A DNA stretch of 64,000 nt from an uncultured virus (IMG/VR IMGVR_UViG_2645728028_000003) (IMGVR_UViG_2645728028_000003:1-64000), one strand, 5' to 3'; counted from the stretch's first letter, positions 7,459-35,596 are shown. A program made the numbers and translations. Notes: generated by a model not told the origin, from the letters alone.

Positions 7459-7647
7459 ATCGCCTTTATTCCATAAACGGGCCATTATATTAAATAAGGG
7501 TTGCATAAACCCCAGTTTTTTACAGCTTTCTGGCTTCCGAAGAAGCCAAAAACGTTGATACATCAACGATGTATAAAATCGTGAATATACAAGTAAAAAG
7601 GAACAAAGTTCAAACCTTTGGTAAATAAGGATTTCGCCTTTTGGTGT

Positions 7648-7675
7648 ACTCCCGAAAGTTGCGATTATGATAATT
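7648..7675 (+). other. Degenerate dif-like Xer site
   Basis: ACTCCCGAAAG-TTGCGA-TTATGATAATT; upstream flank homologous to those of the 31063 and 53953 sites. Confidence 0.55.
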
Positions 7676-7899
7676 AGGTTTGTATAGAGTATGCAGCGGT
7701 CTATTGGGGATCTTGTTCAACTTCAAGGGATGATTTTGATTTAGACGAAAATATTTACTTTTCTTGAATTTCTAGTATCCAAAATTAATTTTAAGGAGAC
7801 TAGAAAAGCACATAAATTCAAAATAGGTATCTGCCCAATCAAAATGGGTTAATTCACCATAACTTATGAATGTATGACTTTTAGGAAATGGAGGTATTT

Positions 7900-9270
7900 A
7901 TGAATATGTATAGACAGTCTATACCGTATAATAACAATTACCATGGTTGGCTACGACCAACATCACAATACGAAAATTATTTTAGGGAAACTCGAGCTCC
8001 AATAGCTGGTGATTCTAATGTTCCAGGTGTTGCGGCAGTTTACGGCAATAATACGAATGGTGGTACAGGTGTAGCCGGGAAAAGTATAAGTGGCTGGGGT
8101 ACTTCGGGCCATAGTGACACGAGCACGGGAGTAGTTGGAGTAAGTAAAAGCGGTTGGGGTACTTCGGGCGAGAGTGTAACGAACACGGGAGTAGTGGGAA
8201 TGAGTAAAAGTGGCTGGGGTGTATCCGGCCATAGTGACACGAGCACAGGAGTAGTGGGAATAAGTAAAAGTGGCTGGGGTACTTCGGGCGAGAGTACAAC
8301 GAACACGGGAGTAGTGGGAATGAGTAAAAGTGGCTGGGGTGTATCCGGTAAAAGTGGCTGGGGTACTTCGGGCGAGAGTATAACGAACACGGGAGTAGTG
8401 GGAATGAGTAAAAGTGGCTGGGGTGTATCCGGCCATAGTGACACGAACACAGGAGTAGTGGGAATAAGTAAAAGTGGCTGGGGTACTTCGGGCGAGAGTA
8501 CAACGAACACGGGAGTAGTGGGAATGAGTAAAAGTGGCTGGGGTGTATCCGGCCATGGTGACACGAATACAGGAGTAGTGGGAATAAGTAAAAGTGGCTG
8601 GGGTACTTCGGGCGAGAGTATAACGAACACGGGAGTAGTGGGAATGAGTAAAAGTGGCTGGGGTGTATCCGGCCATGGTGACACGAATACAGGAGTAGTG
8701 GGAATGAGTAAAAGTGGCTGGGGTGTATCCGGTCATGGTGACACGAATACAGGAGTAGTGGGAATAAGTAAAAGTGGCTGGGGTACTTCGGGCGAGAGTA
8801 TAACGAACACGGGAGTAGTGGGAATGAGTAAAAGTGGCTGGGGTGTATCCGGCCATGGTGACACGAATACAGGAGTAGTGGGAATAAGTAAAAGTGGCTG
8901 GGGTACTTCGGGCGAGAGTATAACGAACACGGGAGTAGTGGGAATGAGTAAAAGTGGCTGGGGTGTATCCGGCCATAGTGACACGAACATGGGAGTTGCA
9001 GGGATAAGTAGAGATAACATTGGTGTATATGGGAAAGGCGGACGACTCGCAGGTATGTTTGAAGGTAATGTTGACATAACGGGTTCTCTTACTGTTCAGG
9101 GCAAGAACATCAACGAACTTACGGGACTGCAACAGCAAGTCAATAACCTTCAGCAGCAATTATCAAGCATACAACAAAAACACGACGAAGATGTACAGGG
9201 TATCGCAAACAGTTTGTTAACGCTCGCTCAACGGGTCACCGCTTTAGAAAGTCTATCACATTCACATTGA
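7900..9270 (+). CDS. Gly/Ser-rich tandem-repeat (GVxG) protein with C-terminal coiled coil
   Basis: RBS GGAGGT; 16 SGWG motifs in 20-aa units; AGMFEGNVDITG then heptad-like tail. Confidence 0.8.
   Translation: MNMYRQSIPYNNNYHGWLRPTSQYENYFRETRAPIAGDSNVPGVAAVYGNNTNGGTGVAGKSISGWGTSGHSDTSTGVVGVSKSGWGTSGESVTNTGVVGMSKSGWGVSGHSDTSTGVVGISKSGWGTSGESTTNTGVVGMSKSGWGVSGKSGWGTSGESITNTGVVGMSKSGWGVSGHSDTNTGVVGISKSGWGTSGESTTNTGVVGMSKSGWGVSGHGDTNTGVVGISKSGWGTSGESITNTGVVGMSKSGWGVSGHGDTNTGVVGMSKSGWGVSGHGDTNTGVVGISKSGWGTSGESITNTGVVGMSKSGWGVSGHGDTNTGVVGISKSGWGTSGESITNTGVVGMSKSGWGVSGHSDTNMGVAGISRDNIGVYGKGGRLAGMFEGNVDITGSLTVQGKNINELTGLQQQVNNLQQQLSSIQQKHDEDVQGIANSLLTLAQRVTALESLSHSH
8077..9000 (+). repeat. Coding tandem repeat, 60-bp unit with alternating variants
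   Basis: Recurrent AAAAGTGGCTGGGGT every 60 bp; one shortened unit near 8345. Confidence 0.95.
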
Positions 9271-9352
9271 GAACCCCCATCAAATAGATTGCTAGCTGAA
9301 TCTGCATACGACAAACAAGAATGTATATAAATCGTCTTTAATTTTTAAAGAT

Positions 9353-9381
9353 AATGCCGATAATATCTGATTATGTTAAAT
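9353..9381 (+). other. dif-like Xer site (7-bp spacer)
   Basis: AATGCCGATAA-TATCTGA-TTATGTTAAAT; right arm is a canonical XerD arm. Confidence 0.7.
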
Positions 9382-9543
9382 AAACATATTCAGGAATACG
9401 ATAATCTTATTCTTTAATCGGAAGTGAAAACAGAAGATCATTATGCTATGCATTTAATATTATTTGGATATCGAGTTTTCAAGAAAAGGGCACGTTTGTT
9501 TAATACTCTTCTCTTACTACAAATAGAGAGTAAATTAAAGAAG

Positions 9544-9585
9544 AAGGACATTACATATCTTATATAACTAATATGTAATGTCCTT
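9544..9585. terminator. Long inverted repeat / terminator-like hairpin
   Basis: AAGGACATTACATAT / ATATGTAATGTCCTT perfect 15-bp arms. Confidence 0.6.
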
Positions 9586-9623
9586 TTATTTAATATTTTT
9601 TAAATTCAGGTCCTGATAACAAC

Positions 9624-9830
9624 TTATCTCTCATCCATGCTAGGATGGCTCTTTATAAATTTTTGTGAACCATTTTCGATTGTGATACTCACTCCGTCGC
9701 GATCAATCACTTTATCACATTCTGCATCTAATTCATGCAAACGAATTAAATCATTTACTTTTTTTACTTCCAGCAAATCTTCGGTATCAACACGTGCTAA
9801 TAATTGATTTTTTAACTCATCAAATTTCAT
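9624..9830 (-). pseudogene. terS: P27-family terminase small subunit, truncated
   Basis: IENGSQKFIKSHPSM; homologous to 1312-1635; no terL follows. Confidence 0.75.
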
Positions 9831-9897
9831 ACTACCCCTCCCCCCTTATCACCCCTAATGTGAAAGGCTAATTTTTATATATTTTCAGAGAGTTAAG

Positions 9898-9950
9898 CCC
9901 CCTCCCCGGTGCCCCATTTGGAAAAAAGTCCAAAATTTTCGACCGGGGGG
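9898..9950. other. Putative cos packaging region, second copy
   Basis: Matches 1687-1739; lies between HNH and terS. Confidence 0.55.
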
Positions 9951-10019
9951 TTGTTACAGAAAATTTTTTTATTTTTTCTACCACTTTTCATCATGCTGCC
10001 ATTTGTTCTGCTTCTTTTT

Positions 10020-10298
10020 TTAAAAGTCTCGACCGTGTTCTTTGTTGTGACAATCGACACAAACAGTCTCCAGGTTATCTTCATCAAGCGCTAACTCCGG
10101 ATGATGCTCGAGCTCCTTGATGTGGTGAACTACTAGCTGGATCTTCTTGCGCTTGACACTCTCGCTGTATTCATTCGTATCGATGGATACTCGCCCTTGC
10201 CGTTTACATTCTTTGCATTCATAGTTGTCACGCATATGCTTCCATTCCCCACTGTCATAGAACTTACGCTTTTGTTTACTGGTCTTATTCTCTTTCAT
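10020..10298 (-). CDS. Phage HNH endonuclease (probably degenerate C-terminus)
   Basis: CKEC, VHHIKE, NLETVCVDCHNKEH. Confidence 0.85.
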   Translation of the reverse strand: MKENKTSKQKRKFYDSGEWKHMRDNYECKECKRQGRVSIDTNEYSESVKRKKIQLVVHHIKELEHHPELALDEDNLETVCVDCHNKEHGRDF

Positions 10299-10408
10299 AT
10301 TCCTCCTAATAAAAAAAGCACTCCCAAAGGAATACTTTTATCAGTAAATATCTTTATATTTTTGTATAACATGTATTTATGGATATCTTTAGTAACTCAA
10401 GCTATTAA

Positions 10409-11323
10409 TTAGATTTTTAATTTTTCACCATCTAGAAAAACAGCTTTAGGTCTAACACGTCGAACCCTTCTCTCTTCCATGTAATAAGTTAAATCGCTAA
10501 TTTTGTTAAGAATATTTTCTAATTGGTTTGCTCTTAACGCTTCTTCCGAATTTAGATTTGAGATAAGTTCATTTGCAATAATAATTCCATCTCTCGAAAG
10601 CGAATTTAATTCTTTAATTGCACCTAATGGTATAGGTTCACTTCTTTGAATTACATCACTTAAATATTGAGGAGGTAATAATTCAGTTGGCGATCTTAAC
10701 AATTTTTGTTGATTACGAGCAAGTTCAAGTAGTTCCTCTAAAATCTCACTGGTATATGGATTTGTTTCACTGGCCTCAGTTTTTTGCACCTCAACAACTT
10801 CTTCTGCATCAAGCAACGCATCTAGGTCTTCCTTTAAGGATGGCCACCAGACCTCAAAAACTTTATCTAGTCTTACCTGTTCAAGTGCATCACTTTGTAG
10901 AGACTTATTGATACTTTCAACTAATTTCTTTACATCATCTTTTGTATAGATTGTTGATTGGAATTGTAGAGTTGGACCAGTTACTTCTGATCTCTTTAAA
11001 TTAAATAAGAATGGCGACACCCGAGATTTTTCAACCTGCTTTGAAAGTGCTCCTGCCTCAAAGTTAATCCAAGGAGCCTTAATATTTTCTTTAGTTAAAA
11101 TAATAATCCCATAGTTCGAATTATTTAATTCACCTGCAATATCGCTACTCCATCTTGTACCCTTATCAATGTCCTCAGATGATACGTAAGGTTCTACCGA
11201 TTGAATAACTGATGGTATCCAATCCCTTAATATTAATGCAACATTTCTACTTAAATCCCCAGACCAACTTAAAAAAACTTTCATTTTCTTTATTTCACTC
11301 CATTTATCTAAAATAATACTCAC
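10409..11323 (-). CDS. TIR-domain protein
   Basis: KVFLSWSG...DIDKGTRW...WINFEAGA (TIR_2 boxes with the catalytic Glu); helical C-terminus. Confidence 0.85.
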   Translation of the reverse strand: MSIILDKWSEIKKMKVFLSWSGDLSRNVALILRDWIPSVIQSVEPYVSSEDIDKGTRWSSDIAGELNNSNYGIIILTKENIKAPWINFEAGALSKQVEKSRVSPFLFNLKRSEVTGPTLQFQSTIYTKDDVKKLVESINKSLQSDALEQVRLDKVFEVWWPSLKEDLDALLDAEEVVEVQKTEASETNPYTSEILEELLELARNQQKLLRSPTELLPPQYLSDVIQRSEPIPLGAIKELNSLSRDGIIIANELISNLNSEEALRANQLENILNKISDLTYYMEERRVRRVRPKAVFLDGEKLKI

Positions 11324-11750
11324 CTCCTAATATTCGACACAAAAAAAACAATCCCTTTTTCCTATTTATATTTTTTAATGCTTCCTCAGGTATTCTACTA
11401 ACTAAAATATTATTCATTTTCTTAAAAAAGACCTGTCTGTCAACGGTATATCTTTCACCTTTAAAGCACTAATGTTATTATTTTTGCAATTATTCAATAT
11501 TATTACCTCTTCCCCAGTGCCAGATTCACATTTTTATAAGTATCACGCCTGGTACCCATGATATCTTCCCAGTCTCTTCGACTAAGATCCTCTTAGTTTC
11601 CTGTATTAGGTTTTTCTCTCTGATTCTCCGCAAACCTACGCAGCTGGTTAAACTGCTGAATCTGTGCTTTTGATAAATGATCAGCGAACTTCATATTGAC
11701 CACCCACTTTCCCAAATAAAAAAGCACCCATAATTATGGATGCTGGTTGA

Positions 11751-12263
11751 TTAAGTAAATAACACTATTGGCATTTCTGAAGATCTTCTATTTTTATAAA
11801 ACTTTTCTAATTCACTTTGACTTAAAGAGTTTTTCTTATTATCTTGTTTAAAATTAATAGCATTTGCATTAGCCCGCACATAAATTTGCTCTATGCCTTC
11901 CTGAATAGCATAATATTTGAGCTTCTCTATATAATAACTAGCTATACCTATTTTTCTTAATGATTCGTCATGTACATACAATAATTCTAAATTTATTTCC
12001 TTTTTGTCTCTTTTTAATTCTTCCATAATTCTTTGGTTTCTTTTATAGAAATCCATTGAAAACAGAACTTTTTCATTTCTTTTGTAATAAAGACAAAATT
12101 TTACATTTCCATCTTCGCAATGATATCCTCGTTCCTTTGTATTAAGAAGTCCTTTGTCATCAAATTTAAAGACAATATAATCTTCATTCTCTTTAATACA
12201 ATCAGGTAGACCCCAGTTTATAATCATATTTTCCATTGTTTTATTATTTTGTTTTTCACTCAT
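11751..12263 (-). CDS. GNAT-family acetyltransferase
   Basis: LYVHDESLRKIGIAS (motif A) and LEKFY; RBS before 12263. Confidence 0.7.
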   Translation of the reverse strand: MSEKQNNKTMENMIINWGLPDCIKENEDYIVFKFDDKGLLNTKERGYHCEDGNVKFCLYYKRNEKVLFSMDFYKRNQRIMEELKRDKKEINLELLYVHDESLRKIGIASYYIEKLKYYAIQEGIEQIYVRANANAINFKQDNKKNSLSQSELEKFYKNRRSSEMPIVLFT

Positions 12264-12395
12264 TGTCTTCCTCCTTCGATACTCATTGTTCATCTTATTC
12301 GAGATAAGGACTGGTTTCCCTCTTTTGACAAAAAAGACAACACTTCGAACCTAAGCGCAGTCATGAAATATTCTACATTTTCATAAAGAAATATT

Positions 12396-13133
12396 TTATT
12401 GTTCTTCATTTCTTTTCGAAAATTTAGTTACAAAATAAGAGACAAAAAAACCTATAATTATTACATTAAATACAAAGCCAATAATGTATTCACATAATAA
12501 TATCAATGTGATTGGCTGTTCTAATATTATGCCACTGGAAGGAAATGAATAAAACGGTATCAATCCTTTGTATATAATGAATAGGTAAGTGGTGAGACTT
12601 GAGTTAGAATGAAACATAATTTTATTATATTCTTCTAAAGTATAAAGATTAAAAACATCATTATACTCCAAGTAAAACAATCCAAAACCAATGCCAGCTA
12701 CGCATAAAATTAATCCATAACCAAAAATAAAATTTAATAATTGGAAAATCATATTGTTAAAGTTTTTCAGTGCATTGGTAATTAAAATAACTGAAAATAT
12801 AATGATAAATATTGTTAATACTATTAAAAAGCGAAAATTTAATGGGTTTTCTAGGTATACATTTAAAAAACCCAAGGTAAAAGTAATTAATAATAGGACT
12901 CTAAATAACCAATTTAGAAAGTTAATGAAACTATTATTAGAAGAATAAGTAAAAATCTTTCCAAGACCAATCAAAAATATTAAAAATAATATCAAATTAA
13001 TAAAACCTGGAATTTTACTCTCAATAGGTGTCTCAACAATTACCACTATAAATGACACAGTGAGTATAAAAATTGCAGTTGAAATTTCTTTTTTATTCTT
13101 AAGCAATAAAACTCTAGGAAACACATTTTCCAA
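12396..13133 (-). CDS. Polytopic membrane protein
   Basis: Very AT-rich ORF with about 7 hydrophobic segments. Confidence 0.65.
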   Translation of the reverse strand: MENVFPRVLLLKNKKEISTAIFILTVSFIVVIVETPIESKIPGFINLILFLIFLIGLGKIFTYSSNNSFINFLNWLFRVLLLITFTLGFLNVYLENPLNFRFLIVLTIFIIIFSVILITNALKNFNNMIFQLLNFIFGYGLILCVAGIGFGLFYLEYNDVFNLYTLEEYNKIMFHSNSSLTTYLFIIYKGLIPFYSFPSSGIILEQPITLILLCEYIIGFVFNVIIIGFFVSYFVTKFSKRNEEQ

Positions 13134-13157
13134 TTTTAAATTTAACGAGGAATTTTT

Positions 13158-13307
13158 TTAAAAATTACTAATCCATTCTCTTTTTTCAAGGTAGTTTATA
13201 GACCTTTTGAAATGAGCATACGATTTTTTTGTCCAAACAAATAAAGTGTATGAAAGTGAAATTGTAGCTAAAATCAAAATAACAAAAGCAATGATTTTCT
13301 GAATCAT
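13158..13307 (-). CDS. Small single-TM protein
   Basis: RBS GGAGGTG before MIQKII. Confidence 0.4.
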   Translation of the reverse strand: MIQKIIAFVILILATISLSYTLFVWTKKSYAHFKRSINYLEKREWISNF

Positions 13308-13826
13308 GAGAAAACACCTCCCAGATTTTAAATTTTTATAGTTTTTTATACGATTATATAAGGCAAAAGTTCCGTAGTATAAAATATAAAGAACCATTTA
13401 TATAATCTAATTAGAATACTGATTCAAAAAAATTTCCTTTATCTATTAAAATCTTTCTATTACTATAACCCATTTCATTATCATTTTTGAATACTTGATC
13501 TCTTTGATCTATAATCATTCTGGCATGCTGTTTGCCTTCTCAGCATGCATATAAGGTAATCTTTCTAACTCCTATCTGCATGCACTTCATTTTACTGAAA
13601 ATATCGTATCCTTGCGCTTCTCTCCATACACAAAGAGCCTCCATCGCTGGACGCTTTTCTATTCATTAATTAGCCTTCTATTCTTGCTTTTTCATTTGCA
13701 AGAAAATTTCTTTAATATTATCTTTAGCACTTTTGCATAAAATGAAGGAAAAATAATTTTTAGTGTATTTGGATTAGAATACATAATTTGCATAAAAAAA
13801 GCACCCTTGAAAGGATGCTCCTAAAA

Positions 13827-14042
13827 CTAATCTACGATTTTAATAGTCTTGCCATCTTCTTGAACTACTAATGATTTATTACAGGATACATTAATATCCC
13901 CTGCCACAATTTCAAATTTAAGAATAGTACCATCATTAAATTCAGTAACAGACACAACTTTTTCAGGAGTGTGTTCAAGAACCTCAAAACTTGTGCGTTC
14001 TCTTCCTTCAAGATCAATATTCATTTCTGCCAAATTACTCAC
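13827..14042 (-). CDS. Hypothetical protein
   Basis: RBS GAGGAG, GTG start; flanked by related terminators. Confidence 0.55.
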   Translation of the reverse strand: MSNLAEMNIDLEGRERTSFEVLEHTPEKVVSVTEFNDGTILKFEIVAGDINVSCNKSLVVQEDGKTIKIVD

Positions 14043-14152
14043 CTCCTCTCACCCACAATTATGAGCAAAAGGCACTAGATGGACAAACACTATCGTTCGT
14101 CAAATTATGACAAATTCCCAAAATAAAAAGCACCCTCGAAAGGATGCTCTAG

Positions 14153-14992
14153 CTAGGATATATATTCTACAAAAGAAGGAATACATAGCATTCCTTTCTT
14201 TGTGTAATTTCTAAACTTTACACGACATTTAATCTTTGGATCAACATGTATGAACTTTTTATCTTCTTCTATTATTAGATCCTGGAACTGCTTATAGAAT
14301 TGTTTTCTTCCGGCAGGAGAAACAAATTCCATAATTCCAGCCGGTTTAATGCGGTTAATTTCTTCAATTCCAAGCAACAACCAGAATTCATCTTTTCTGA
14401 GGCCTGTAATAAATACATCAGCATATTGATAATTTATTACCTTTAACCAATTCTGAGAGCGTTTATTAATTTGATATTTAGATGCTGCTCTTTTAAGGAC
14501 AATTCCCTCTAGGTCATGCTGCTTAACTATATCAAAATAAGCTTCACCTTTACCAAGCATCCACTGGACCTTTGCAAAGTATTGATCATTGTGGATCAAG
14601 CTTTCAAGAATATCTTTTCTTTCTATTAAAGGAAGATGCGTAATCTTTTCTCCTTTATAATAAATAATATCAAACACACAGAACTGAATATGGTGATTAG
14701 ATCTTTTGGATTGAAACCTTTCCATCATTGCCTCAAAGTCAGGCTTCCCATCCTTATCAGTGACTATTATTTCTCCATCCAAAACTGTTCCATCTGGAAT
14801 ATCTATGTGTAGCAATTCAGGAAACTTAGAAGTCACCTCATTATTATGCCTTGTATATAATTTAATCTGATTATTAAACTTAGACAGGATTAATCGAATG
14901 CCATCTAGTTTTAATTCAGTAATAAACTCTTTATCTTCAAATGGCTGCTCAGATTTATGAAGCAGCATTGGTGAAACAAACACTTTTACCAC
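14153..14992 (-). CDS. ATP-dependent DNA ligase (phage LigB/YoqV-like)
   Basis: Motif I ELKLDGIR, LDGEI, VFDI, EGIVLK, WLKV. Confidence 0.9.
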   Translation of the reverse strand: MVKVFVSPMLLHKSEQPFEDKEFITELKLDGIRLILSKFNNQIKLYTRHNNEVTSKFPELLHIDIPDGTVLDGEIIVTDKDGKPDFEAMMERFQSKRSNHHIQFCVFDIIYYKGEKITHLPLIERKDILESLIHNDQYFAKVQWMLGKGEAYFDIVKQHDLEGIVLKRAASKYQINKRSQNWLKVINYQYADVFITGLRKDEFWLLLGIEEINRIKPAGIMEFVSPAGRKQFYKQFQDLIIEEDKKFIHVDPKIKCRVKFRNYTKKGMLCIPSFVEYIS

Positions 14993-15113
14993 CTCTGAAA
15001 TATCATACCATGGTAAACTCTTATTTTCTTATAACAAGAAACATGTAAGTTATCCCTGAAAAACCAATATAAAAAGCATCCCCGAGGATGCCTTTTCCTA
15101 GAAAAGTTTTGTT

Positions 15114-15311
15114 TTACTGATCATATACAGATACATAGGTTACTTGATTAAGATTAATCCTATGATACCCTCTTGAGGATTTATTGGTACCTTCAAAGTA
15201 ATCTTTTTGCACGTAAATAGTTTTTAATACATCCTGTTCATCATTTCCATACACATGCAAGGTCTTTGTGTTTTCGTTATCAAAGTGAAAAACTACCTTA
15301 TAAAGTTGCAT
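15114..15311 (-). CDS. Hypothetical protein
   Basis: RBS AAAGGAGG before MQLYK; sigH-like promoter. Confidence 0.55.
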   Translation of the reverse strand: MQLYKVVFHFDNENTKTLHVYGNDEQDVLKTIYVQKDYFEGTNKSSRGYHRINLNQVTYVSVYDQ

Positions 15312-18121: not shown

Positions 18122-18156
18122 AAAACCCCTCGATACCAGTAGTATCAAGGGGTTTT
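18122..18156 (-). terminator. Rho-independent terminator after the glnA 3' end copy
   Basis: AAAACCCCTCGATAC / GTATCAAGGGGTTTT with U-tract on the minus strand. Confidence 0.8.
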
Positions 18157-18160
18157 ATTC

Positions 18161-18217
18161 TTAGTACATGCTCATGTACTGCTCGCGCTCCCATGGATGC
18201 ACTTGCGTACGGAACAT
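18161..18217 (-). repeat. glnA: att core: copy of the glnA 3' end
   Basis: MFRTQVHPWEREQYMSMY*; upstream sequence is not glnA. Confidence 0.9.
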
Positions 18218-24157: not shown

Positions 24158-24160
24158 TTT

Positions 24161-25922: not shown

Positions 25923-28490
25923 TTAGTCTTTATCCTCAATAAACTCTGTAACTGATTTCGTATCTAATTGAGGATATTCTTCTACATTTTTGTTTAGAAC
26001 CCTTCTGAACAATATATCTACAGCACCTATATCAATTACTTCCTTAGTAAATAATTTAATTAACTCTTTACTAAAAATTGTTCTTGAATTTGCGATATGT
26101 TCATAGTTTTTTCTATACATATGATACAAATATAATAATGTATCAACAGTCAAAAAGATTGGTCTTGCATTTGACTCATCATTTAATTTCTCATAAAAGT
26201 GCTGTTTCATAGTTTCAAATTGCACTTCTTTAAACCTGTTTGAGATAAATACGTGACCAGAAAGTTCCTGGTTATCACTATAATTCTGGATAATGTCATT
26301 ATCATTCAATAGTTCGATATAATCTACCGCTTTCCTTTGTTCCTCTTTTTTAAGATTGTATCCTTCATCACTTCTAGTGAACTTACAGTCATATGAAAAT
26401 ACTCTTCTTTTTTCTTGTTTTAACTTACCCTTTTCAATATAAGAGATAGCAAAGATCCCTTCGGGTACAGGTTTCCCGCTCATTTCTTTTCCCCATTTCT
26501 CAGAATTGGGGAATAGGTCTTTCAATATAGCATAAATGTCATCTTCAAATTTCTTATCTGTATATTTTTTATCTACCTTTGATGGAGGTGTTTTTAATTG
26601 ACCCAATGATTCCTCAGCAATACTTGCTGCATTATGCACAAAAGATTTTTGACGAAGTTTGAGTTTCTCAATTATTTGTGAATAAAAATCACCGAACATA
26701 TGTTCATCAGTTACATATAGATTACCAAAAGTTACTGCTTGTATGCAATCACTATTATAAGATTCAAGATTCTTTTCTAATTGACCTACAAAGACAATTA
26801 TAGTTGGTGTCATCATTGTTTTTAATCTGTTTAGGTCTTTGTAGGGTATACTTTGATCCGATAACAATATTTGAATGATCTCATTATTCTCTAAACTTTC
26901 TAACTTATAGAATTTGTATTGGGTATCATCAAAAATAATTTTCGGTTCGTATGTTGCTAAGGAGAAATTGGACAATCCTTTTAAAGATTTTCTAATTAAT
27001 GACCTTATTACTGTTAAATCAGATTTCATTTCAGTTATTTCCTTGAACTTTAAATCACGGTTACCGCAATCCGGGCACTCATCAGGGGTTTCGTCAGTAA
27101 TTTCTTTCTCTAATTTACAAACTATACAATAAAAATTCTGCTTTTTTACTTCAATTATTAATTTATTTTTAATTAACTCTGATAGGATTTTTTTACCATG
27201 CTCATCTAATGACTTGGTCTGTGGTGTACCTAACAAATAATCTATCTTATCTGCTTTACCAGCTGTATATTTTCCATTTGCTATTTCTTGGTTTAAAGGA
27301 ATTCCAAATTTCTTTATAAATTTTTCAACAATCAACTGTTTCTTTGCTTCTTCTAAACGACTGTCATCCATAGTAAACAAAACATTTCCATTATCACGAA
27401 CAATCGATCGTACGATTCTACTTTTACTAGACGACTTTATTGACAAACTCTCGATATCCTTTAAGCTTTCTAAGTCAATGCATTTATTTATATGTGCATA
27501 TTTAACAGATGGCCAAATATCCTCATTTTCGAGTTCTAAAGTTACTTTTGGTGAATTTTTAATTGGACTTTCCCTGAAAACTATTTTATTTACTACAAAA
27601 TCCTCAACCTTCTCTTCTCCAGGTAATGACCCTTGAATAAATGCGTTTTTTACATCTTCACTATTATATTTTTCAAATACCTTAAGCTGGATAGGTGACG
27701 GATTACAATCCGGGAAATTATTATTAAAATATTTAATTAAGGCCTTCTTATCTGTTAGAGTTGTACTCTTTATTTCTAATGTTCTCTCTTTTGCATTAAC
27801 AGAGAACATTAGTGGTACAACTTCTTTATTTCTAACAGCTTTATCAAAATCCGCTCTTGGAGCATCATTTACCTGCTTATATAAAATAACAGTAACTGTT
27901 TGGTCTAATATTAAATATGAAAATACTCGAAACTTCTGTTTTTGTCCAGACTCTCTAAATAATTCATCAATAAGTATATTTCTATATGAACTTGGTATTT
28001 TTTGTGCTTCATCTAATGTAATACCTTTCTCATATGTATACAAATCTCCAGTGGACTTAATATCCCAAGAATATAAAGTATATAATTCAATCATTGATAA
28101 GCTAGTGTTAGAAATTAAATGTTTTAATTTAGTTAAGCTTGAAGATGCAAATTGCTCTTGTGCATTTGACATTTTCAACTTATAAAATTTATTGATTGTT
28201 TGTTTACGCCTATTTTCATAGTCATGAAGTATTAATATTTCTCGTTTATCATCTTCTGGTAGACCTAATAATAAAGTTACTAATTCAGTTTTACTTTCTG
28301 CAGAATCTAAGCCATATAAAACTGCTAGTTCCTTTAAGACACTTACTGTTTTGTTTTCTAATAATCTCTTAACCCTATTACTAATTAATGGACCTTCTAA
28401 TTCCAAAATGGGATCAATTGAGACACCAATTTCTCTCCAAAACCTTTCATCAGGTTTTGTATTGTCTTTATAATCAAAATTTAGCGACAC
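25923..28490 (-). CDS. 855-aa protein with Zn ribbon and putative C-terminal restriction-endonuclease-like domain
   Basis: CIVC/CPDC; KFEDD...PEG...YDCK resembles the E..PD-(D/E)xK arrangement; very AT-rich. Confidence 0.7.
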   Translation of the reverse strand: MSLNFDYKDNTKPDERFWREIGVSIDPILELEGPLISNRVKRLLENKTVSVLKELAVLYGLDSAESKTELVTLLLGLPEDDKREILILHDYENRRKQTINKFYKLKMSNAQEQFASSSLTKLKHLISNTSLSMIELYTLYSWDIKSTGDLYTYEKGITLDEAQKIPSSYRNILIDELFRESGQKQKFRVFSYLILDQTVTVILYKQVNDAPRADFDKAVRNKEVVPLMFSVNAKERTLEIKSTTLTDKKALIKYFNNNFPDCNPSPIQLKVFEKYNSEDVKNAFIQGSLPGEEKVEDFVVNKIVFRESPIKNSPKVTLELENEDIWPSVKYAHINKCIDLESLKDIESLSIKSSSKSRIVRSIVRDNGNVLFTMDDSRLEEAKKQLIVEKFIKKFGIPLNQEIANGKYTAGKADKIDYLLGTPQTKSLDEHGKKILSELIKNKLIIEVKKQNFYCIVCKLEKEITDETPDECPDCGNRDLKFKEITEMKSDLTVIRSLIRKSLKGLSNFSLATYEPKIIFDDTQYKFYKLESLENNEIIQILLSDQSIPYKDLNRLKTMMTPTIIVFVGQLEKNLESYNSDCIQAVTFGNLYVTDEHMFGDFYSQIIEKLKLRQKSFVHNAASIAEESLGQLKTPPSKVDKKYTDKKFEDDIYAILKDLFPNSEKWGKEMSGKPVPEGIFAISYIEKGKLKQEKRRVFSYDCKFTRSDEGYNLKKEEQRKAVDYIELLNDNDIIQNYSDNQELSGHVFISNRFKEVQFETMKQHFYEKLNDESNARPIFLTVDTLLYLYHMYRKNYEHIANSRTIFSKELIKLFTKEVIDIGAVDILFRRVLNKNVEEYPQLDTKSVTEFIEDKD

Positions 28491-28712
28491 TAGATACCAC
28501 CCTTTTACATTTTATTCTAATTGTCGTTCTTTTTTTTTTCTAAATCAAGACCTTTATGAGTTGTTTCCCCAAAACATTTCCATATTAATAAGTCATAAGT
28601 TGTAAGTTATAAATTATAACAATTTCATAACTGGACTGAGACTAATCTTTATTAATTAAGAATTCACAAAACAGACACAAGGACTTTTTCCCTATTGTAG
28701 CTAATTATTGCA

Positions 28713-28946
28713 TTGGGAGGGATAAAGTTGAAGAGCAAAAATAATATTAAACCGCATTGTCATGTTTGCATGGAAGAATTTATGATGGGTGTTGATGTTG
28801 TGATGGACGGTACCTTTAAAGGGATCATTCATGCAGATTGTAACTATCTACCGCCAGATGAGATTGAAGATCGGGGGAAATTTGAGGATGTTGTCATGAG
28901 GAACCAAAGGTGGTTTAACCAATTTAATCATGTTATTATGCACTGA
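28713..28946 (+). CDS. Small Zn-finger-like protein
   Basis: CHVC...HADC; followed by a terminator. Confidence 0.55.
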   Translation: MGGIKLKSKNNIKPHCHVCMEEFMMGVDVVMDGTFKGIIHADCNYLPPDEIEDRGKFEDVVMRNQRWFNQFNHVIMH

Positions 28947-28983
28947 AATAGAAGCCCCTCTCGATTTCAAGAAGGGCTTTCTC

Positions 28984-29018
28984 CTTATTGAACAAAAGGG
29001 GCAGGTTAGTAAAATAAC
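28984..29018. repeat. R-type imperfect palindrome
   Basis: CTTATTGAACAAAAGGGGCAGGTTAGTAAAATAAC; relatives at 7465, 9477, 29612, 33660 and 33783/35561. Confidence 0.6.
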
Positions 29019-29088
29019 ATTTTGGATTTGGAGGAAATTGGTAACTCCTTGTCGAATAATCACCCTATAAATTTTAGGGGGAAGCAAA

Positions 29089-29502
29089 ATGAACTATACA
29101 ATTGTAGAAGATTTTAATGAAAGCCTATTAGAGGAGTTGCAAAGCTTATTCCAAAAAGAATGGTGGACACAAAAGCGACAATTACCTGACATTAGGGAAA
29201 TGATTTCAAACAGCGGCATAGTAATTGGCATTATCAACAATGACACATCGGAGTTACTGGGATTTGGAAGAGCAATAACCGACTCTCAGTATAGAGCATT
29301 TATTTTTGATGTCATTGTTAAAGAACAGTATCGCAGTACAGGTCTCGGTAAATTATTATTAGAATCGATATTATCTCACCCTAGAATAGTTAATGTTGAC
29401 CGAGTTGAACTTTACTGTCCAGAGAGGCTAGTTCCTTATTATGAAAAGTTTGCCTTTTCCACAGAAGTTAACGGGAGTCAATTAATGAGATTAAAAGGGT
29501 AA
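29089..29502 (+). CDS. GNAT-family acetyltransferase
   Basis: LLGFGRAITD...IFDVIVKEQYRSTGLGK...YYEKFAF. Confidence 0.9.
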   Translation: MNYTIVEDFNESLLEELQSLFQKEWWTQKRQLPDIREMISNSGIVIGIINNDTSELLGFGRAITDSQYRAFIFDVIVKEQYRSTGLGKLLLESILSHPRIVNVDRVELYCPERLVPYYEKFAFSTEVNGSQLMRLKG

Positions 29503-29688
29503 TACAAAGTAGGCTGAGAATAAGTTCAGGCGGATAATAATGCTCTTTTTTTTCGGTTAATACTAACTGATAAGGTTCCTTATTGTGAAGAAATGGCGTA
29601 ATAAAAGAGGACTTAAACAAACGAGTGCGTTAATTGAAAACAGCAGCCTATAATAAAGCCCCTCTCGAACTGAGAAGGGCTTTTGCAT

Positions 29689-30231
29689 TTATTTCAGGAA
29701 CTCTCCAACAGCCGTAGCCGTTTCAAATCTATCTGCACCAGATAACAGAGTAACTTTGTCTGCTACTATGCCATCTTTAGTGCCCCCTACAACATACAGT
29801 TCTTTTGCTACTTTCTTCCCTTTAACCGTTGAACGCAGATAAATTGGAGCTTTGAGGTTCAATGCAAGCCTCTCAGCTGCAGGGAAATCAGCAAACCCAT
29901 TGATTACAATTGCTTTTCCTAACATATCATCTTCCTCCTTTGGTTTTTGTACTGGTTTAGGTTTAGGGGCCGGCTTTGGTTTCGGTTTTTCAAGAGGTTT
30001 TAACAAATCCATATCCGCCGTTCCTGTTGTCCGGTTATCTTCGTGTTTTATATATTCCTCCGTCGCACCCTCTACCCATCCATTCTCTGTCCACCGTGGT
30101 TTATACAACAAAGGCGGGACGGGTTCTTTTATTAGGTTTGCTTCCAAGACATCCGTATCCTTAACGGCAACGGTATCAACAATGAAGCCATTTTCATCAA
30201 TCAGTTTAGCTTCGATAAACAAATGATTCAC
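29689..30231 (-). pseudogene. Chimera of a 37513-37848 paralogue and an endolysin C-terminus
   Basis: N-terminal part matches 37614-37848; C-terminal part matches the end of 35631-36509. Confidence 0.8.
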
Positions 30232-30237
30232 CTCTTT

Positions 30238-30361
30238 TTAATTGGCATACAAGAAATAAATACCGTCAAGAGATAGCCAATTACCGGAAACCGTTGCGGT
30301 TACTTTTCCATCGGGTGCAATGGTTATTCTGGATGTCCCCACGGAAGAATTGGACCATGTG
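30238..30361 (-). pseudogene. Orphan copy of the tail protein C-terminus
   Basis: TWSNSSVGTSRITIAPDGK...IYFLYAN, identical in protein to the end of 37855-41103. Confidence 0.85.
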
Positions 30362-30562
30362 TATATCTCTCCAAAACAGCTAATTACTTTGCGGATCATA
30401 GCAGCTACCCTGTCACTATGCCTAGGGATGAGGGGCAACATTATTACGAATTATCTTTTTTCTATTTCTTTTAAATTACAATAAAACGCTGCTACAAGAA
30501 TCTATACTGATTTGTTGAACAAGCATAAGATAAATTGAATCTAATTTTAAAGGAGGAACAAT

Positions 30563-30910
30563 ATGGGAAAAGATAGAAATCGTGTTATTAATGTCACTCT
30601 CCTCGCGTGGGTCCCGAGCACGGGCGCGTTGACCTTCTTCTTTGAAGGTGGTTTTACGACGGCGAGAGTCTTGTCGACGACAACCACGCGGCGTGCGCAG
30701 CTCAATCGGTTCCTTCCCGGAGATCCGATCTTCCCCCTTGTAACGCGTTGGAACGCACTCATCTCGTCGGGGCGGACGACCTTCGGTCAAACGAATACCG
30801 ACAACCCAAACACCTTTAGCGGGATCACAAACCAGCTCGTGTCCTTAAACGCGCGTATGCGAATCCAGCTCCGGAGTGGGATCTTGGTCGCCCTTCGCCC
30901 CATTCCTTAG
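30563..30910 (+). CDS. Hypothetical protein, GC-rich
   Basis: RBS AAAGGAGG; composition differs from flanks. Confidence 0.65.
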   Translation: MGKDRNRVINVTLLAWVPSTGALTFFFEGGFTTARVLSTTTTRRAQLNRFLPGDPIFPLVTRWNALISSGRTTFGQTNTDNPNTFSGITNQLVSLNARMRIQLRSGILVALRPIP

Positions 30911-31062
30911 TCGCAATTAAAATCCCACTTTTTTATTCAGCTGTCAGGCTTCTTAAGAAGCTAGAAACGTTGATAAATCAATCATGTATAAAATCATGCA
31001 TAATCAATAAAAAATGAACAAGAGCCAAACCCTTAATACTACTGGGTTTGGCTTTTTGGCTT

Positions 31063-31090
31063 ACTTCTTAAAATTGACATTATGTTCGTG
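31063..31090 (+). other. Degenerate dif-like Xer site
   Basis: ACTTCTTAAAA-TTGACA-TTATGTTCGTG; upstream flank 30947-31062 homologous to 7531-7647. Confidence 0.55.
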
Positions 31091-31211
31091 TATAGGGTAT
31101 ACATCGAATTATTAGTACTAGATATAAAACCTTCACAGTATATTGATAATGTATATTTTTTTTCAAATATAGGTTTCAGAAAAATATGACTTAAGGAGGA
31201 GGAAACTATAT

Positions 31212-32159
31212 ATGGCTCTGATACGAGGTGAATCTTCAAATCCGAACGAACCGGCAGTTCTCGGTACAAGCAATGCTCCAGATCAGGGAATGGGGGTAAT
31301 GGGAACAGCTACACGTGGGTCCGGCGTAATCGGAACGAGCGTCGACTGGATTGGCGTGTATGGAGAGAGCAATAATTATGAGGGTGTGCGAGGTACATCC
31401 AAGAACAAGGACCATGCAGGGGTCGTGGGTACCAATGAAGCGGGAGGAAGTGCCTTTTATGGTGAGGGCTCCGCTGGGCTCATTGCAGTCGGAAAGCAAT
31501 GGGTCGGTGTCTATGGCGAGACCCAAGCCCAACCAGGTGTTGGGTCCGCGGGGGTCTGGGGTGATGGAAAAAACGGGGGTGACGGTGTCAAGGGGCATGC
31601 GAGCGCACCAGGGAAATCGGCGGTGGCCGGAATCCACCTCACAAATCAAGGCCCAGGCATCCGCGGTAAGGGTTCTCCCGCTGGTTTTTTCGAGGGCGAT
31701 GTCCATGTTACTGGTAATATCAGAGCCAATGGTGACATCATTCTCTCAAATGCAGATTGTGCTGAAGACTTTGATGTATTCGAGGCTGATACAATCGAAC
31801 CTGGGACTGTTATGATTTTTGGTGAAGGGGATTCGTTACTACAAAGTCAGTATGCATACGATAAACGAGTTGTAGGTGTGATCTCTGGCGCAGGCAATTA
31901 CAAGCCTGGTATTATTTTAGATAAACAGCAATCACTGATAAACAGAAAACCAGTTGCTCTGATGGGAAAAGTATATTGTAAAGTAGATGCAGGCTACGCA
32001 CCAATTAAGGTAGGAGACTTACTTACCACATCTGACACCCCGGGACATGCGATGAAGGCAACGGATCCTTTGAAAGCCTTTGGCACAGTTATTGGCAAGG
32101 CAATGCACCCATTGAAAGAAGGCCAAGGGTTAATCCCAATCCTGGTTGCCTTACAGTAA
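31212..32159 (+). CDS. GVxG-repeat protein with C-terminal intramolecular-chaperone-like (peptidase G2 IMC-like) domain
   Basis: GVYGES repeats; ADCAEDF..EPGTVM..VVGVIS..VALMGKVYCKV..IKVGDLLTTS..GHAMK. Confidence 0.75.
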   Translation: MALIRGESSNPNEPAVLGTSNAPDQGMGVMGTATRGSGVIGTSVDWIGVYGESNNYEGVRGTSKNKDHAGVVGTNEAGGSAFYGEGSAGLIAVGKQWVGVYGETQAQPGVGSAGVWGDGKNGGDGVKGHASAPGKSAVAGIHLTNQGPGIRGKGSPAGFFEGDVHVTGNIRANGDIILSNADCAEDFDVFEADTIEPGTVMIFGEGDSLLQSQYAYDKRVVGVISGAGNYKPGIILDKQQSLINRKPVALMGKVYCKVDAGYAPIKVGDLLTTSDTPGHAMKATDPLKAFGTVIGKAMHPLKEGQGLIPILVALQ

Positions 32160-32175
32160 AAGGAGGGAAAGAGCT

Positions 32176-33312
32176 ATGAGTACGAAATTTCGCTGGGCTG
32201 TGCTCCTTTGCAATTGCCAGGGCACCTCTACCAATCAGACGGCCCAGCAATTCTTCGTCAACCTGTTCACGCCAGGACTAGGAGGAGCCATCGATTACTG
32301 GAGCGATATGTCGTTCGGTGAACTGGATCTAACAAACTCGTCTGTCTTTAGTTGGGTGACTTTGTCGATTACGACGGCGCAGGCACTCAACACACGTAGA
32401 AGCGATGCTATTAACATGGGTATCGATGCCCATAAGGCGGCAGGACATGACCTTCGTGGCTTTGACCAGATTCTAGTTTATATTGACGTTCCGTTTATTG
32501 GTCAGAACATAACGGAGGGTGGACAGCAAGGCGCTGGGTCAGCTCAGGGACGAGTGCTGACTGATCAGGGCGTGATGCGTTCCGACTTCATCATGCATGA
32601 GATGGGGCATGGCCACGGGCTGAAGGATGAATCGTATGACATAATGGGGAACGCCTACGGGGACCCGTACTGCATCATGAGCGCCATGTCATACGGCGGT
32701 ACGGACCCCACGTTCATGGACCCGCGCTTCGGCCCTTCAGGTCCATCTTTATGCTCTCCGTACATTTTTTCTAAAAATTGGCTACCACAACAAAACACGG
32801 TTCTTATAGAGAGTAACGGCAAATGGCCGAAGACAACCCATCTAACATTGAGTCCGTTCGAAAGAGGCACAACAGGAAGTCCCCAGGTGGCGATCATTCG
32901 CTTCACGCATCCCTTTACGACAAGCTATTTCATCGACTATCACCAAGCAGCTGGTTGGGATCGGGGTCTTTCGCAAGATGCTGTGGTCATACGCCAGTAT
33001 AGGCCGGACGGAAAATCATACTACGCTGGAAGGATTGCAACATCAGTCGCACATGTAGGTGGAGTAGTACTGCTCCCCGAGGGGGGTTATCTTGATAAGC
33101 AGTTTGATCTTTCTGTCGATACTACCCGCGTACTAGCAGACGGTCGGGTTGAGCTCACGATTGCTCCTGCAGCAGCACTGCAGACGCTAAGTGTACGAAC
33201 TGTAGCGCGCAATAAGCTGGGGCTTAACAGTGGGTTCTCTATACGAGGTAGCATCATGCGACCGGGGACGAACTCACTTCGCTGGAGTCTTGTCGAGATC
33301 CTTGGCGACTGA
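32176..33312 (+). CDS. Metzincin-type zinc metalloprotease (M6/M11-like)
   Basis: HEMGHGHGL, YGDPYCIMS Met-turn, DYWSDMSFG. Confidence 0.75.
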   Translation: MSTKFRWAVLLCNCQGTSTNQTAQQFFVNLFTPGLGGAIDYWSDMSFGELDLTNSSVFSWVTLSITTAQALNTRRSDAINMGIDAHKAAGHDLRGFDQILVYIDVPFIGQNITEGGQQGAGSAQGRVLTDQGVMRSDFIMHEMGHGHGLKDESYDIMGNAYGDPYCIMSAMSYGGTDPTFMDPRFGPSGPSLCSPYIFSKNWLPQQNTVLIESNGKWPKTTHLTLSPFERGTTGSPQVAIIRFTHPFTTSYFIDYHQAAGWDRGLSQDAVVIRQYRPDGKSYYAGRIATSVAHVGGVVLLPEGGYLDKQFDLSVDTTRVLADGRVELTIAPAAALQTLSVRTVARNKLGLNSGFSIRGSIMRPGTNSLRWSLVEILGD

Positions 33313-33465
33313 CACACGCTACGGGAAGGCGGAGCAGATATTCATGAAATCCCTGCTCTACACCGGAAGGTGCCTAGGTGGAGGGATTCCACCGCCTCCG
33401 CGTAAACAAAAACACCCTTCAGACCTTATTCTGAAGGGTGTTTTTAGAGAATGTTAGATAGATTG

Positions 33466-33494
33466 ACTACTGATAATCCTTAGTTATGTCAACA
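33466..33494 (+). other. dif-like Xer site (7-bp spacer)
   Basis: ACTACTGATAA-TCCTTAG-TTATGTCAACA. Confidence 0.6.
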
Positions 33495-33534
33495 AAAATA
33501 GGTTGCGTACCTTTTGGATAATCAACCTGTTTTA

Positions 33535-33563
33535 ATTACCTATAACACTCAATTATGTTAACT
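33535..33563 (+). other. dif-like Xer site (7-bp spacer)
   Basis: ATTACCTATAA-CACTCAA-TTATGTTAACT; downstream ~130 bp homologous to 9382-9505. Confidence 0.7.
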
Positions 33564-33964
33564 AAACATAATCAGGAATACGATAATCTTATTCCTCAAA
33601 CCGGGAGCAAAAACAGAAGATTGTAATGTTATGCCTTTAATATTATCTTGATATCGAGTCTTCAAGAAAAGGGCGCTTTTCTTTAATAAGAAGGCGTCTT
33701 TTTGTATTGAGTAAGATTCTAGAAAAATATATTTATGGGATTGGATTATGTTAAAGTATAAAAGAGATTGTGAAGGTTTCTACTTAAACTCCCTCAGTTT
33801 AATACGATTATCTTCCGAATACTCGCTTATTCGCAGGATTTCATCCACCTAGGATTACATTTAATTGAATGTAAGGAGTAGATTCTGGACATTTGGCTAC
33901 GTGAAGGCATAGTTAAATAGAGGAGTAGGATTATACTCCATATTTTACCATGTGATGTACTTCT

Positions 33965-34110
33965 CCACGCCGCCCCTGGAGGCTTTCCCTCCCATGTCTC
34001 AACGGGTCAATCGCCCTCTCATTCCTTCGTCATGCCTATCCAAGGGGTGGAGGCCAGTCTAGCTAACGGAATGGGTCAGTGCCCTTTTGTTTAAGTAACC
34101 TGGTACTCCG
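33965..34110 (-). ncRNA. Putative IS110 bridge RNA (ends approximate)
   Basis: Two internal loops with GGGC..TGACCC hairpins; guides match the target and the donor junction. Confidence 0.75.
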
Positions 34111-34178
34111 TACATATTTGAGATCCTGCGAATAAGCCAACATTCGATCTAATTTCTCTTCGAAAAAATTTGTTTAAA

Positions 34179-35453
34179 CTAAGCTGCCAGCTCTGTTAGG
34201 GGTCGAACTTTTTCTGGACAATACGATTCGTTATTACGTGCCATTCCTACAAAAATCCTGGCCAATTTCCCAACCAGTTTCATTATCGATTTCATCTTTT
34301 TCATTTTCTTGACTTTCACATTATTGGAGTGGACAGCCTTAAACTCAGCGTTGTTTATTACCAGGCTGATAGTGGCCAGGTAAAGGAAACGCCTGAGTCT
34401 TGACCTTCCACGTTTTGATAAGACAATTTGTCCTTTCCATTTCCCAGAACTAGCTTCAGAGAGATGGAGCCCTGCGTGGCGGAGTAAAGAATTACCGTGC
34501 GAAAACCCACTTAAATCTCCTGCTTCGCCTAAAATACCGGCTAAAGAAATATCACTAATTCCCTTGATCTTAAGCAGTTTATCGGCGAAAGGAATTTTAA
34601 GAAGTTCTTTCTTGATTGTCAGCTCGACTCTGTTTAGTTGTTGAACCGCAAGGTCATACTCTTCGAGTAATTGTTCCAGATGAAATTTATAGGCCTCTAT
34701 GGCTTGCATTGTACCGACAGATTTCCTGGCTACATTGAGAAGTAAATAGGCTTTCTTTAACCCAGGCTGTCTTTTCATGAGTGATTTCCAACCGGAAACG
34801 ATCTCATCTGGATTCATGGAACCTAGTTCCATCGGAGTTGGAAAAAGCCGCAGTGTGGCGATTGCCCCTTTTGCGGTAATGTCTTTAAAGACTTGCCTGA
34901 GTTCGGGAAAAACAATGTCCACCCAGCGATTTAATTGATTAATAGAGCTTACAAGCCTTTTAACAACAACATCCCGGTTAGACATGAGAACCCTGAGTTT
35001 TTCAAACGGTTCAGAAGCAAGTCTCACAAAGGAGTAGTAACCATTCTTCACCATATCGGCTATGACGAGGGCATCTTTCTTATCACTCTTTGATTGCGTA
35101 TTATCACGATTTTCTTTATTCCTTTTAACCAAATGTGGATTAACCGTTACTACCTCAATATTTCGCTTTATGAGCCATTTTGAAAGGTTAATCCAATAAT
35201 GGCCTGTTGGTTCCATTCCGACAATGGATACCTCTAATTTATGTAATCTTTTAAGATTATTAATCCAGTTTAATAGGGCCGAGAAACCTTCTTCGTCGTT
35301 TTGAAAAGTGATTGGATCTCCTAGAACAATTCCACGAAAATTGACAGCCCTGGCTACATGGAATTGTTGGGCAATATCTACTCCAATTACAAGATGCTTG
35401 TCAGAAATTCTTTCGATTAGTTGATTTTGTTTGTCCTGCATTTTAAACTTCAT
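34179..35453 (-). CDS. IS110 recombinase/transposase
   Basis: DEDD motif (GVDIA, GMEPTG, KSDKKDA); C-terminal SSGK...SKRG. Confidence 0.95.
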   Translation of the reverse strand: MKFKMQDKQNQLIERISDKHLVIGVDIAQQFHVARAVNFRGIVLGDPITFQNDEEGFSALLNWINNLKRLHKLEVSIVGMEPTGHYWINLSKWLIKRNIEVVTVNPHLVKRNKENRDNTQSKSDKKDALVIADMVKNGYYSFVRLASEPFEKLRVLMSNRDVVVKRLVSSINQLNRWVDIVFPELRQVFKDITAKGAIATLRLFPTPMELGSMNPDEIVSGWKSLMKRQPGLKKAYLLLNVARKSVGTMQAIEAYKFHLEQLLEEYDLAVQQLNRVELTIKKELLKIPFADKLLKIKGISDISLAGILGEAGDLSGFSHGNSLLRHAGLHLSEASSGKWKGQIVLSKRGRSRLRRFLYLATISLVINNAEFKAVHSNNVKVKKMKKMKSIMKLVGKLARIFVGMARNNESYCPEKVRPLTELAA

Positions 35454-35596
35454 AGTAAGGGTTCCTCCTAAGGTTTGAGTTAGAGTGGTGTCTTTACTCA
35501 TATCTTACTGAGGAGCCCTGTTTTTATCAAAGCTCAAATTTAGTGATCTACAGGAATGCTATAGGGTGCGTTTGTTCATTAAAATAATCTATAATA

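Follow-up and report, generated by a model that had tools for sequence, protein, structure and literature searches.

R is an imperfect palindrome of about 34 bp that recurs in a 64,000-nucleotide stretch of DNA attributed to an uncultured virus (IMG/VR IMGVR_UViG_2645728028_000003, positions 1-64000), and this whole stretch is referred to here as the window. The window corresponds to 4.10-4.16 Mb of a 5.67-Mb genome with 40.5% G+C, in which C19 (G000:C19) is the main contig and C20 is a plasmid-like contig. With a probability of roughly 0.55, R serves as the core site of a cassette system that functions like an integron without being one. Copies of R form a large family, separate single genes in co-oriented arrays, coincide with breakpoints of homology more often than other non-coding positions, serve as targets for insertion sequences (IS) and a group II intron, and are linked to one family of Xer-like tyrosine recombinases. 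A preliminary description of the window had already proposed R as a border of accessory cassettes and had classed it with the attC sites of integrons.

R is composed of an ACTTAAACTAA-like left arm and an TTAGTTGAATA-like right arm, each 11 nt long, that flank GGGYGC, with a centre of the form CGGGYGC. The 98 unique sites give the consensus GTACTTAAACTAAC GGGTGC tTTAgTTcAAtAAG. A hidden Markov model (HMM) of 34 positions, trained on 55 sites from other genera and 24 from the host genome, finds 112 matches of at least 10 bits in the host genome against three in the reversed genome, and 79 against none at 12 bits or more. The palindrome first noticed in the window is therefore real and belongs to a large family. 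On C19, 99 of 104 matches are intergenic, and the strand of R tracks the replichore (origin at ~0.6 Mb, terminus at ~3.65 Mb). Matches cluster at 1.1, 3.0-3.4, 3.6-3.7, and 5.3-5.5 Mb and on C20, often with 450-1450 nt from one R to the next. A plain hairpin screen round GGGYGC returned mostly ordinary terminators and was set aside.

Comparison of the genome copies by blastn and nhmmer places R at the start of a modular repeat. Its first parts are the left arm and then GGGCGC with the right arm, which doubles as the 5′ half of a hairpin that shows compensating changes and carries a T-run. Later parts are a GGGCC motif, GATTGTGAAG-N7-CACTTAAAC, and the next GGGTGC. Among public genomes, AAGATTGTGAAG-N7-CTTAAA occurs in at least 118 loci, mainly of Bacillaceae-like genera, and is followed downstream at those loci by TAACGGGTGC-TTAGTTGAA. 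The left-half R pattern is present in 193 of 401 sampled genomes of the order. Rfam gave no match in the whole window at gathering thresholds, and its three matches at E<=5 on positions 7000-36000 are at chance level, none of them at R.

The shape of R resembles that of a double-stranded recombination site. Two inverted 11-nt arms are the layout of dif- and lox-type core sites, and an Xer/dif-type core site consists of two ~11-bp inverted arms round a 6-8-bp centre, as R does. The arms of R are complementary in 67% of cells when read in register, compared with 27-42% when slid. Covariation between the arms is strong beyond shuffles at pair 11/24, the sole such pair among 11; pair 4/31 also lies above every shuffle, yet it is paired in just 38% of sites. 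When folded as single-stranded DNA, R5 alone clearly beats its shuffles (-6.5 kcal/mol, z -2.49), and R1 to R4 give z values of 0.0 to -0.6. The arm layout and the weak single-stranded fold are better matched by a double-stranded core site made of two half-sites than by an attC that folds. The attC-like classification of the preliminary description is not upheld: no IntI accompanies R, and R keeps a fixed, sequence-conserved form of ~34 bp with weak folds and covariation at one of 11 pairs.

The recombinase linked to R is a Xer-like tyrosine recombinase of 279-282 amino acids. In relatives, the intact gene lies inside R arrays, with an R 70-150 nt upstream or just downstream. In the host genome, a frameshifted pseudogene of this family adjoins an R at 3.703 Mb, which agrees with the view of the preliminary description that the recombinase is not in the window. 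Among recombinase loci fetched from other genomes, 24 of 29 contain an R match, with 44 matches in 104 kb and none in the reversed control. The family is found in 65 of 401 sampled genomes of the order and in 35 of 132 genera, and comprises two clades, 62-65% identical, both of which are array-linked. Modules near the recombinase encode ANT, GNAT, glyoxalase, MFS, and N-acetyltransferase proteins.

The recombinase alignment retains a legible catalytic R, H-x-x-R, H, and Y, and the nearest solved structure is XerD, followed by a XerC-like protein and XerA. It scores 207-212 bits with the XerA-like model NF040815, slightly below the cut-off of 220, and ~200 bits with the XerC and XerD models, for which the cut-offs are ~330. 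Its match to the IntI model TIGR02249 amounts to 96-101 bits and falls into two stretches, with model positions ~181-249 left out between them. No integron integrase is present in the host genome, where TIGR02249 reaches at most 99 bits and its cut-off is 265. The public names of recombinase relatives are generic. The host retains two Xer genes of its own, at 2.05 and 4.30 Mb, and none of the ten serine recombinase matches in the genome lies within the R arrays by position.

The array at 5.34-5.36 Mb of C19 carries single genes between R sites. These genes encode RCC1-repeat, DinB, CopCD, NUDIX, glyoxalase, VanY, SBP, and acyltransferase proteins and two GNAT proteins, and are interspersed with IS110 transposase genes, one intact and several partial. 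Like an integron, it is a co-oriented array of modules that mostly hold a single open reading frame (ORF), each bounded by R. The genus was represented by one genome for each of 43 species, and against these the 20-kb array matches as gene-sized pieces of 83-97% identity that stand at other places and in other orders, again within IS110-rich regions. In the SBP module, the gene moves together with the R right half, GGCGCTTTTCTG..., and it is the left arm that differs (genomes G007 and G016); further breaks are found at GGGCC-type sites or in the hairpin loop.

The preliminary description asked whether single-gene indels end at R. Of the 124 ends of non-IS pieces, 11 come within 6 nt of an R centre, compared with 2% of non-coding positions, so that the ends are enriched at R, with a minority of them located there. 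Further recurrent ends lie at variant sites with low HMM scores (3754 and 6057 of L055, and also 15853 and 17173). The breakpoint test favours R as a border and is supportive but weak. Metagenome joints between array R positions (2888>12253, 3790>12269, and 1665>14050) had sides of 21-59 nt at a 90% likeness threshold, came from runs that contained 5-15% of words, and were not used as evidence.

Mobile elements of two kinds target R. The IS110-family element of the window, designated IS type 1, sits between the left arm and the centre of R6 and parts CTACTTAAAC from ATAGGGTGCG, which bears out the split site read at 33783 and 35561 in the preliminary description. In relatives, all nine IS type 1 copies with both flanks lie in an R-type palindrome after YTNAAC, five forward and four reverse relative to the R centre. 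IS type 2, a second IS110 lineage, has the same insertion point, and IS110-family matches co-locate with R clusters. A group II intron (RF02005, 151.7 bits) begins directly after GGGCAG of an R. This intron is multi-copy, with a copy on the minus strand of locus L055 at 1385-1680 (G000:C19:5341384-5341679), the remainder of which reads N, and the GGGCAG/intron junction is also found in two other genera (L086 and L119).

Within the 3′ non-coding part of the window's IS110-family element (34079-34097, minus strand) is a target-like stretch, TTACTTAAACAAAAGGGCAC, that scores 10.4 bits with the R HMM and may belong to a guide RNA that selects the target. An IS200-type element is present on C19 in ten identical copies (e.g. 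1296871-1297227), the orientation of which tracks the replichore. Its Y1 transposase, the only one in the genome, was considered as a mobiliser of R and rejected; six aligned copies each stand directly after a terminator hairpin, and their ends are unrelated.

If R is a cassette site, it would be the border element of small, mostly single-gene accessory modules in co-oriented Bacillales arrays, and the core recombination site for a dedicated Xer-like recombinase encoded in or beside them. Two recombinase subunits would bind the arms of R, and strand exchange would take place where the left arm meets the centre, or close by. Recombination between two R copies would cut a module out as a circle with one R, and the circle could re-enter at any other R. 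A linear module would start with GGGYGC and the right arm, often with the rest of the terminator hairpin, and would end with the left arm. In the window, the GNAT gene, unit B, the empty 125-nt module, and unit A (Table 1) would have been gathered at R sites, some of them within an integrative element and others adjoining the lysin end of either a prophage or a prophage remnant. Since the recombinase gene of this genome is frameshifted, the R sites of the window are probably inactive relics. They remain landing sites for IS110 elements, and R5 probably acts as a terminator.

Several observations weigh against a cassette system. No recombination event is seen, neither as a circle nor as a clean pair of empty and filled loci in one species. 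Searches for the recombinase came up empty in 26 of 43 genomes of the genus (E<=1e-40) and in 336 of 401 genomes of the order (E<=1e-75); it is missing from several R-rich genomes (e.g. G338, G403, and G413) and broken in the host itself. At least two R-pattern matches occur in 36 of 65 recombinase-positive and 61 of 336 recombinase-negative genomes, a contrast in favour of the linkage, but one tallied by eye and overstated because the counted genomes are related. The recombinase may itself be cargo, bounded by R like any module. Of the 124 piece ends, 113 fall away from any HMM-detected R centre and sit at the edges of genes, as would be expected where DNA has diverged. A terminator hairpin overlaps R in many copies, which alone could account for the intergenic position and orientation of R. 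Within the window, R1 and R3 are weak, and 22 of 3000 AT-rich control 80-mers (0.7%) score 4 bits or more. A small gene upstream of R3 (28663-28980) has four relatives in which homology stops at the terminator, with no R after it.

The alternative that best withstands the evidence is nonetheless unlikely: R would be a terminator-tied repeat of the repetitive extragenic palindromic (REP) or BOX kind that spreads by some means. The module mosaic would then come from homologous recombination between copies together with horizontal transfer, and the Xer-like enzyme would be a passenger, or the integrase of a small element that uses R as its attachment (att) site. The compensated hairpin and T-run of many R copies suit such a repeat, as does an orientation that follows gene and replication direction; AT-rich arms and weak folds are unlike REP. 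Modular sub-repeats are reminiscent of BOX elements. Breakpoints scattered over the repeat, at its centre, loop, and GGGCC sites, also agree with it, as does the majority of piece ends away from R. However, a core of 18-34 nt stays nearly unchanged across many genera while its flanks differ, which points to a selected protein site. The many R-rich genomes without a recombinase are set against a strong linkage to one recombinase family, in most of the fetched loci and in both clades. The sole Y1 transposase of the genome is that of the IS200 element, which inserts elsewhere.

It is improbable that R is mainly a regulatory or transcript-end element, such as an operator or terminator, that acts as a landing pad for IS110 elements and introns and has no gene-moving role. 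The centre and right arm of R5 form the 5′ half of a terminator-like hairpin that extends to ~33703 and is followed by TTTTT, and an upstream pairing, AAGAAAAG/CTTTTCTT, competes with it; R2 and R4, by contrast, fold weakly and are without a terminator partner. Although one sub-family has a sigma-A-like promoter directly upstream of GATTGTGAAG and a possible mini-ORF follows GAGGTG in copies of the 125-nt module, R matches no Rfam family, and a regulatory role leaves the scattered gene-sized homology and the recombinase linkage unexplained.

Attachment-site scars of tandem prophages or elements are largely refuted as the source of the window's R copies: the window is a pile of integrated elements and R4 and R6b lie at lysin ends, which are frequent prophage ends, yet the real repeated att is ~78 nt of the glnA 3′ end and not R, R occurs ~100 further times in the chromosome, and a true R underlies one of 21 viral-contig pattern matches. 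The other 20 are chance matches to the left half, and the one contig carries a true array. A phage collection searched with the lysin and R6b gave one distant lysin match and no R.

The sites of the window (Table 1) lie at the coordinates first reported for them, all on the plus strand and outside ORFs. Of the six listed sites, R2, R4, R5, and the split R6 are firm, and R1 and R3 are only weak variants of 4-5 bits. Two weaker pieces that had been proposed fall away, at 7711 with no HMM match and at 30508 with 1.2 bits. The pair said to enclose the GNAT gene is consequently firm at R4 and weak at R3. Two sites do stand beside lysin terminators, R4 at the lysin remnant and R6b at the prophage lysin, and the proposal that R borders small accessory modules is supported by the single genes between R sites in arrays.

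R1 is nearly identical in form to sites at C19:3377489 and L055:3754, the latter a recurrent breakpoint, and a GGGGCA type akin to R3 stands at the breakpoint L055:6057. These variant types stand at recurrent breakpoints of homology in other parts of the genome, which makes R1 and R3 plausible, unproven degenerate members of the family. R2 and R5 form the last 30 nt of a duplicated 150-nt tail (9357-9505 and 33539-33688, 83-84% identical), and R4 and R6b lie in a duplicated stretch 3′ of two lysin copies (29625-29988 and 35566-35930, ~77%), so the six sites amount to fewer than six independent observations. Homology between units A and B stops at the 3′ edge of R2, and homology of the R4 and R6b flanks begins at GTGCGTT within R4.

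Table 1. R sites, modules, and neighbouring elements of the window.
Feature	Position	Strand	Description
R1	7465..7498	+	GGGCC-type variant before the unit A leader; HMM 4.3-5.1 bits
R2	9478..9505	+	Last 28 nt of the unit A tail; HMM 17.2 bits
R3	28984..29018	+	GGGGCAGGTTAGT-type variant upstream of the GNAT gene; HMM 4.1 bits
R4	29611..29638	+	Between the GNAT gene and the lysin-remnant terminator; HMM 17.9 bits
R5	33660..33690	+	Best R site; HMM 24.8 bits
R6a	33780..33789	+	Left arm CTACTTAAAC of the R split by the IS
R6b	35561..35582	+	Spacer, centre, and right arm of the split R; beside the prophage lysin terminator; HMM 11.4-11.7 bits over 35559-35582
Unit A	7516..9505	+	Leader 7516-7704, repeat protein gene 7888-9270, tail 9357-9505 ending in R2
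Unit B	30931..33688	+	Leader 30931-31112, genes 31212-32159 and 32146-33312, tail 33539-33688 ending in R5
GNAT acetyltransferase gene	29089..29502	+	Between weak R3 and R4; Pfam Acetyltransf_1
ORF-less ~125-nt module	33668..33789	+	Between R5 and R6; genome copies by blastn and nhmmer
Lysin C-terminal remnant	29689..30231	-	77% DNA identity with the prophage lysin; Pfam CW_binding_2; R4 in the downstream flank
Prophage amidase lysin	35631..36509	-	Pfam Amidase_3; R6b in the downstream flank
IS110-family element (IS type 1)	33790..35560	-	Transposase 34179-35501; Pfam DEDD_Tnp_IS110 and Transposase_20; limits from other copies

Units A and B share a leader of ~190 nt and carry different genes. 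Other copies of the leader are found at C20:51153-51358 and at C19:3194671-3194828 and 3022817-3022969, and leader-like sequence has no Rfam match. The unit A protein has 460 amino acids, with about fifteen Gly-rich repeats of 20 amino acids (a 60-nt period in the DNA) and a coiled-coil-like C-terminal tail. Unit B encodes a repeat protein related to that of unit A and a 388-amino-acid protein with an HExxH-like motif. The proteins of both units are without a match in Pfam or PHROGs. Homologues of the GNAT gene occur in two of 42 genomes of the genus, one of them flanked by R.

The ORF-less module of ~125 nt has copies at a minimum of eight other places in the genome and is read as an empty cassette. 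Its copies (window 33760-33789) contain a conserved GAGGTG followed by a possible five-codon mini-ORF, GTG AAG NNN NNN ACT TAA. The middle two codons vary, and the mini-ORF may encode a leader peptide, or it may be coincidental.

The 3′ end of glnA (~78 nt) is present in triplicate, at 2525-2602 and 18142-18217 of the window and at the true gene end (L053:16116-16193), which adjoins a prophage tyrosine integrase. These three copies mark the window as a series of tandem integrations at glnA. One glnA element is of the FtsK/Replic_Relax type with LexA-like, YolD, TIR, HNH, and ligase genes. Another is a block of ~58 kb that ends in an intact prophage, the tyrosine integrase of which abuts glnA. 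A 304-amino-acid TIR-domain protein is encoded at 10409-11323 on the minus strand, beside an HNH gene in an integrative element, and may be a defence protein.

Textbooks present integrons as the device that captures single genes one after another, and Bacillales are a group thought to lack them; the R system looks integron-like. A wider proposal, for which the odds are about even, is that Bacillales own an integron analogue. In it, a stand-alone Xer-like enzyme and the lox/dif-like 34-bp R would take up single-gene modules, stack them, and shuffle them at numerous loci on chromosomes, plasmids, and prophages, with cargo that includes resistance-type genes (ANT, GNAT, and glyoxalase/bleomycin-type), and IS110 elements and group II introns would have evolved to home into R as into attC. 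If R and the 279-amino-acid recombinase work as a pair, soil and spore-forming Bacillales would have an independent device with integron logic and a simpler chemistry, namely a short double-stranded site and a Xer-like enzyme. Such a device would account for the movement of small detoxification and resistance-type genes among these genera, and the R model would become a sequence handle for mobile genes in Bacillales genomes. It would also supply a new compact pair of site-specific recombinase and site, as well as natural target sites for RNA-guided IS110 recombinases. A literature search that left most subscription journals outside its coverage found no paper on the R motif or system.

Among known systems, bcr5 of the Bacillus cereus group (Kristoffersen et al. 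2011) is described in a review (PMC3184786) as a repeat flanking gene clusters "resembling integrons". By that review's description, bcr5 differs from R in its length of 310 bp, its lack of inverted repeats, and the resolvase/transposase cluster it flanks (PMC3184786). REP sequences, bacterial interspersed mosaic elements (BIME), and BOX elements resemble R in being intergenic, palindromic, multi-copy, modular, and targets of IS. REP and BIME are stable, GC-rich stem-loops that go with a RAYT transposase. Unlike them, R has AT-rich arms and a weak fold, is conserved across genera, and is linked to a tyrosine recombinase; the host genome contains no RAYT-like gene.

Composite islands of the staphylococcal cassette chromosome (SCC) consist of tandem modules with one att site between them, some of which are without a recombinase and are served in trans. 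R arrays share with SCC the tandem modules separated by copies of one site, whereas SCC relies on serine recombinases, occupies one locus of the chromosome, and has large modules of several genes. The pdif sites of Acinetobacter plasmids alternate in orientation and use the XerC/XerD of the host. The pdif modules (PMC7399989, PMC12907356) are like R modules in that they are small and have sites of ~28-34 bp with two 11-nt inverted arms and a short centre, and the recombinase linked to R is close to the Xer clade that serves them. In contrast, R sites share one orientation, and they are accompanied by a small recombinase of their own, a single one.

Every Firmicutes genome was without a complete integron, according to Cury et al. 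2016 (PMC4889954). R arrays differ from integrons in that they have no IntI, their recombinase is without the middle part of the IntI model, and R is ~34 bp long, sequence-conserved, and weakly folding. The attC sites are instead conserved in structure, fold, span 57-141 nt, and contain R and L boxes and extrahelical bases. R modules also seem to bring their own terminators and promoters, and R arrays are found at many loci and on a plasmid-like contig. R arrays and integrons share co-oriented arrays of mostly single accessory genes with a site-like repeat between them, ORF-less units, and a cargo flavour of GNAT, DinB, glyoxalase, NUDIX, and aminoglycoside nucleotidyltransferase proteins. In both, a tyrosine recombinase is array-linked, and arrays without a recombinase exist, as with clusters of attC sites lacking integron-integrases (CALINs). 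Both also have sites that are targeted by IS110/IS1111-family IS and group II introns.

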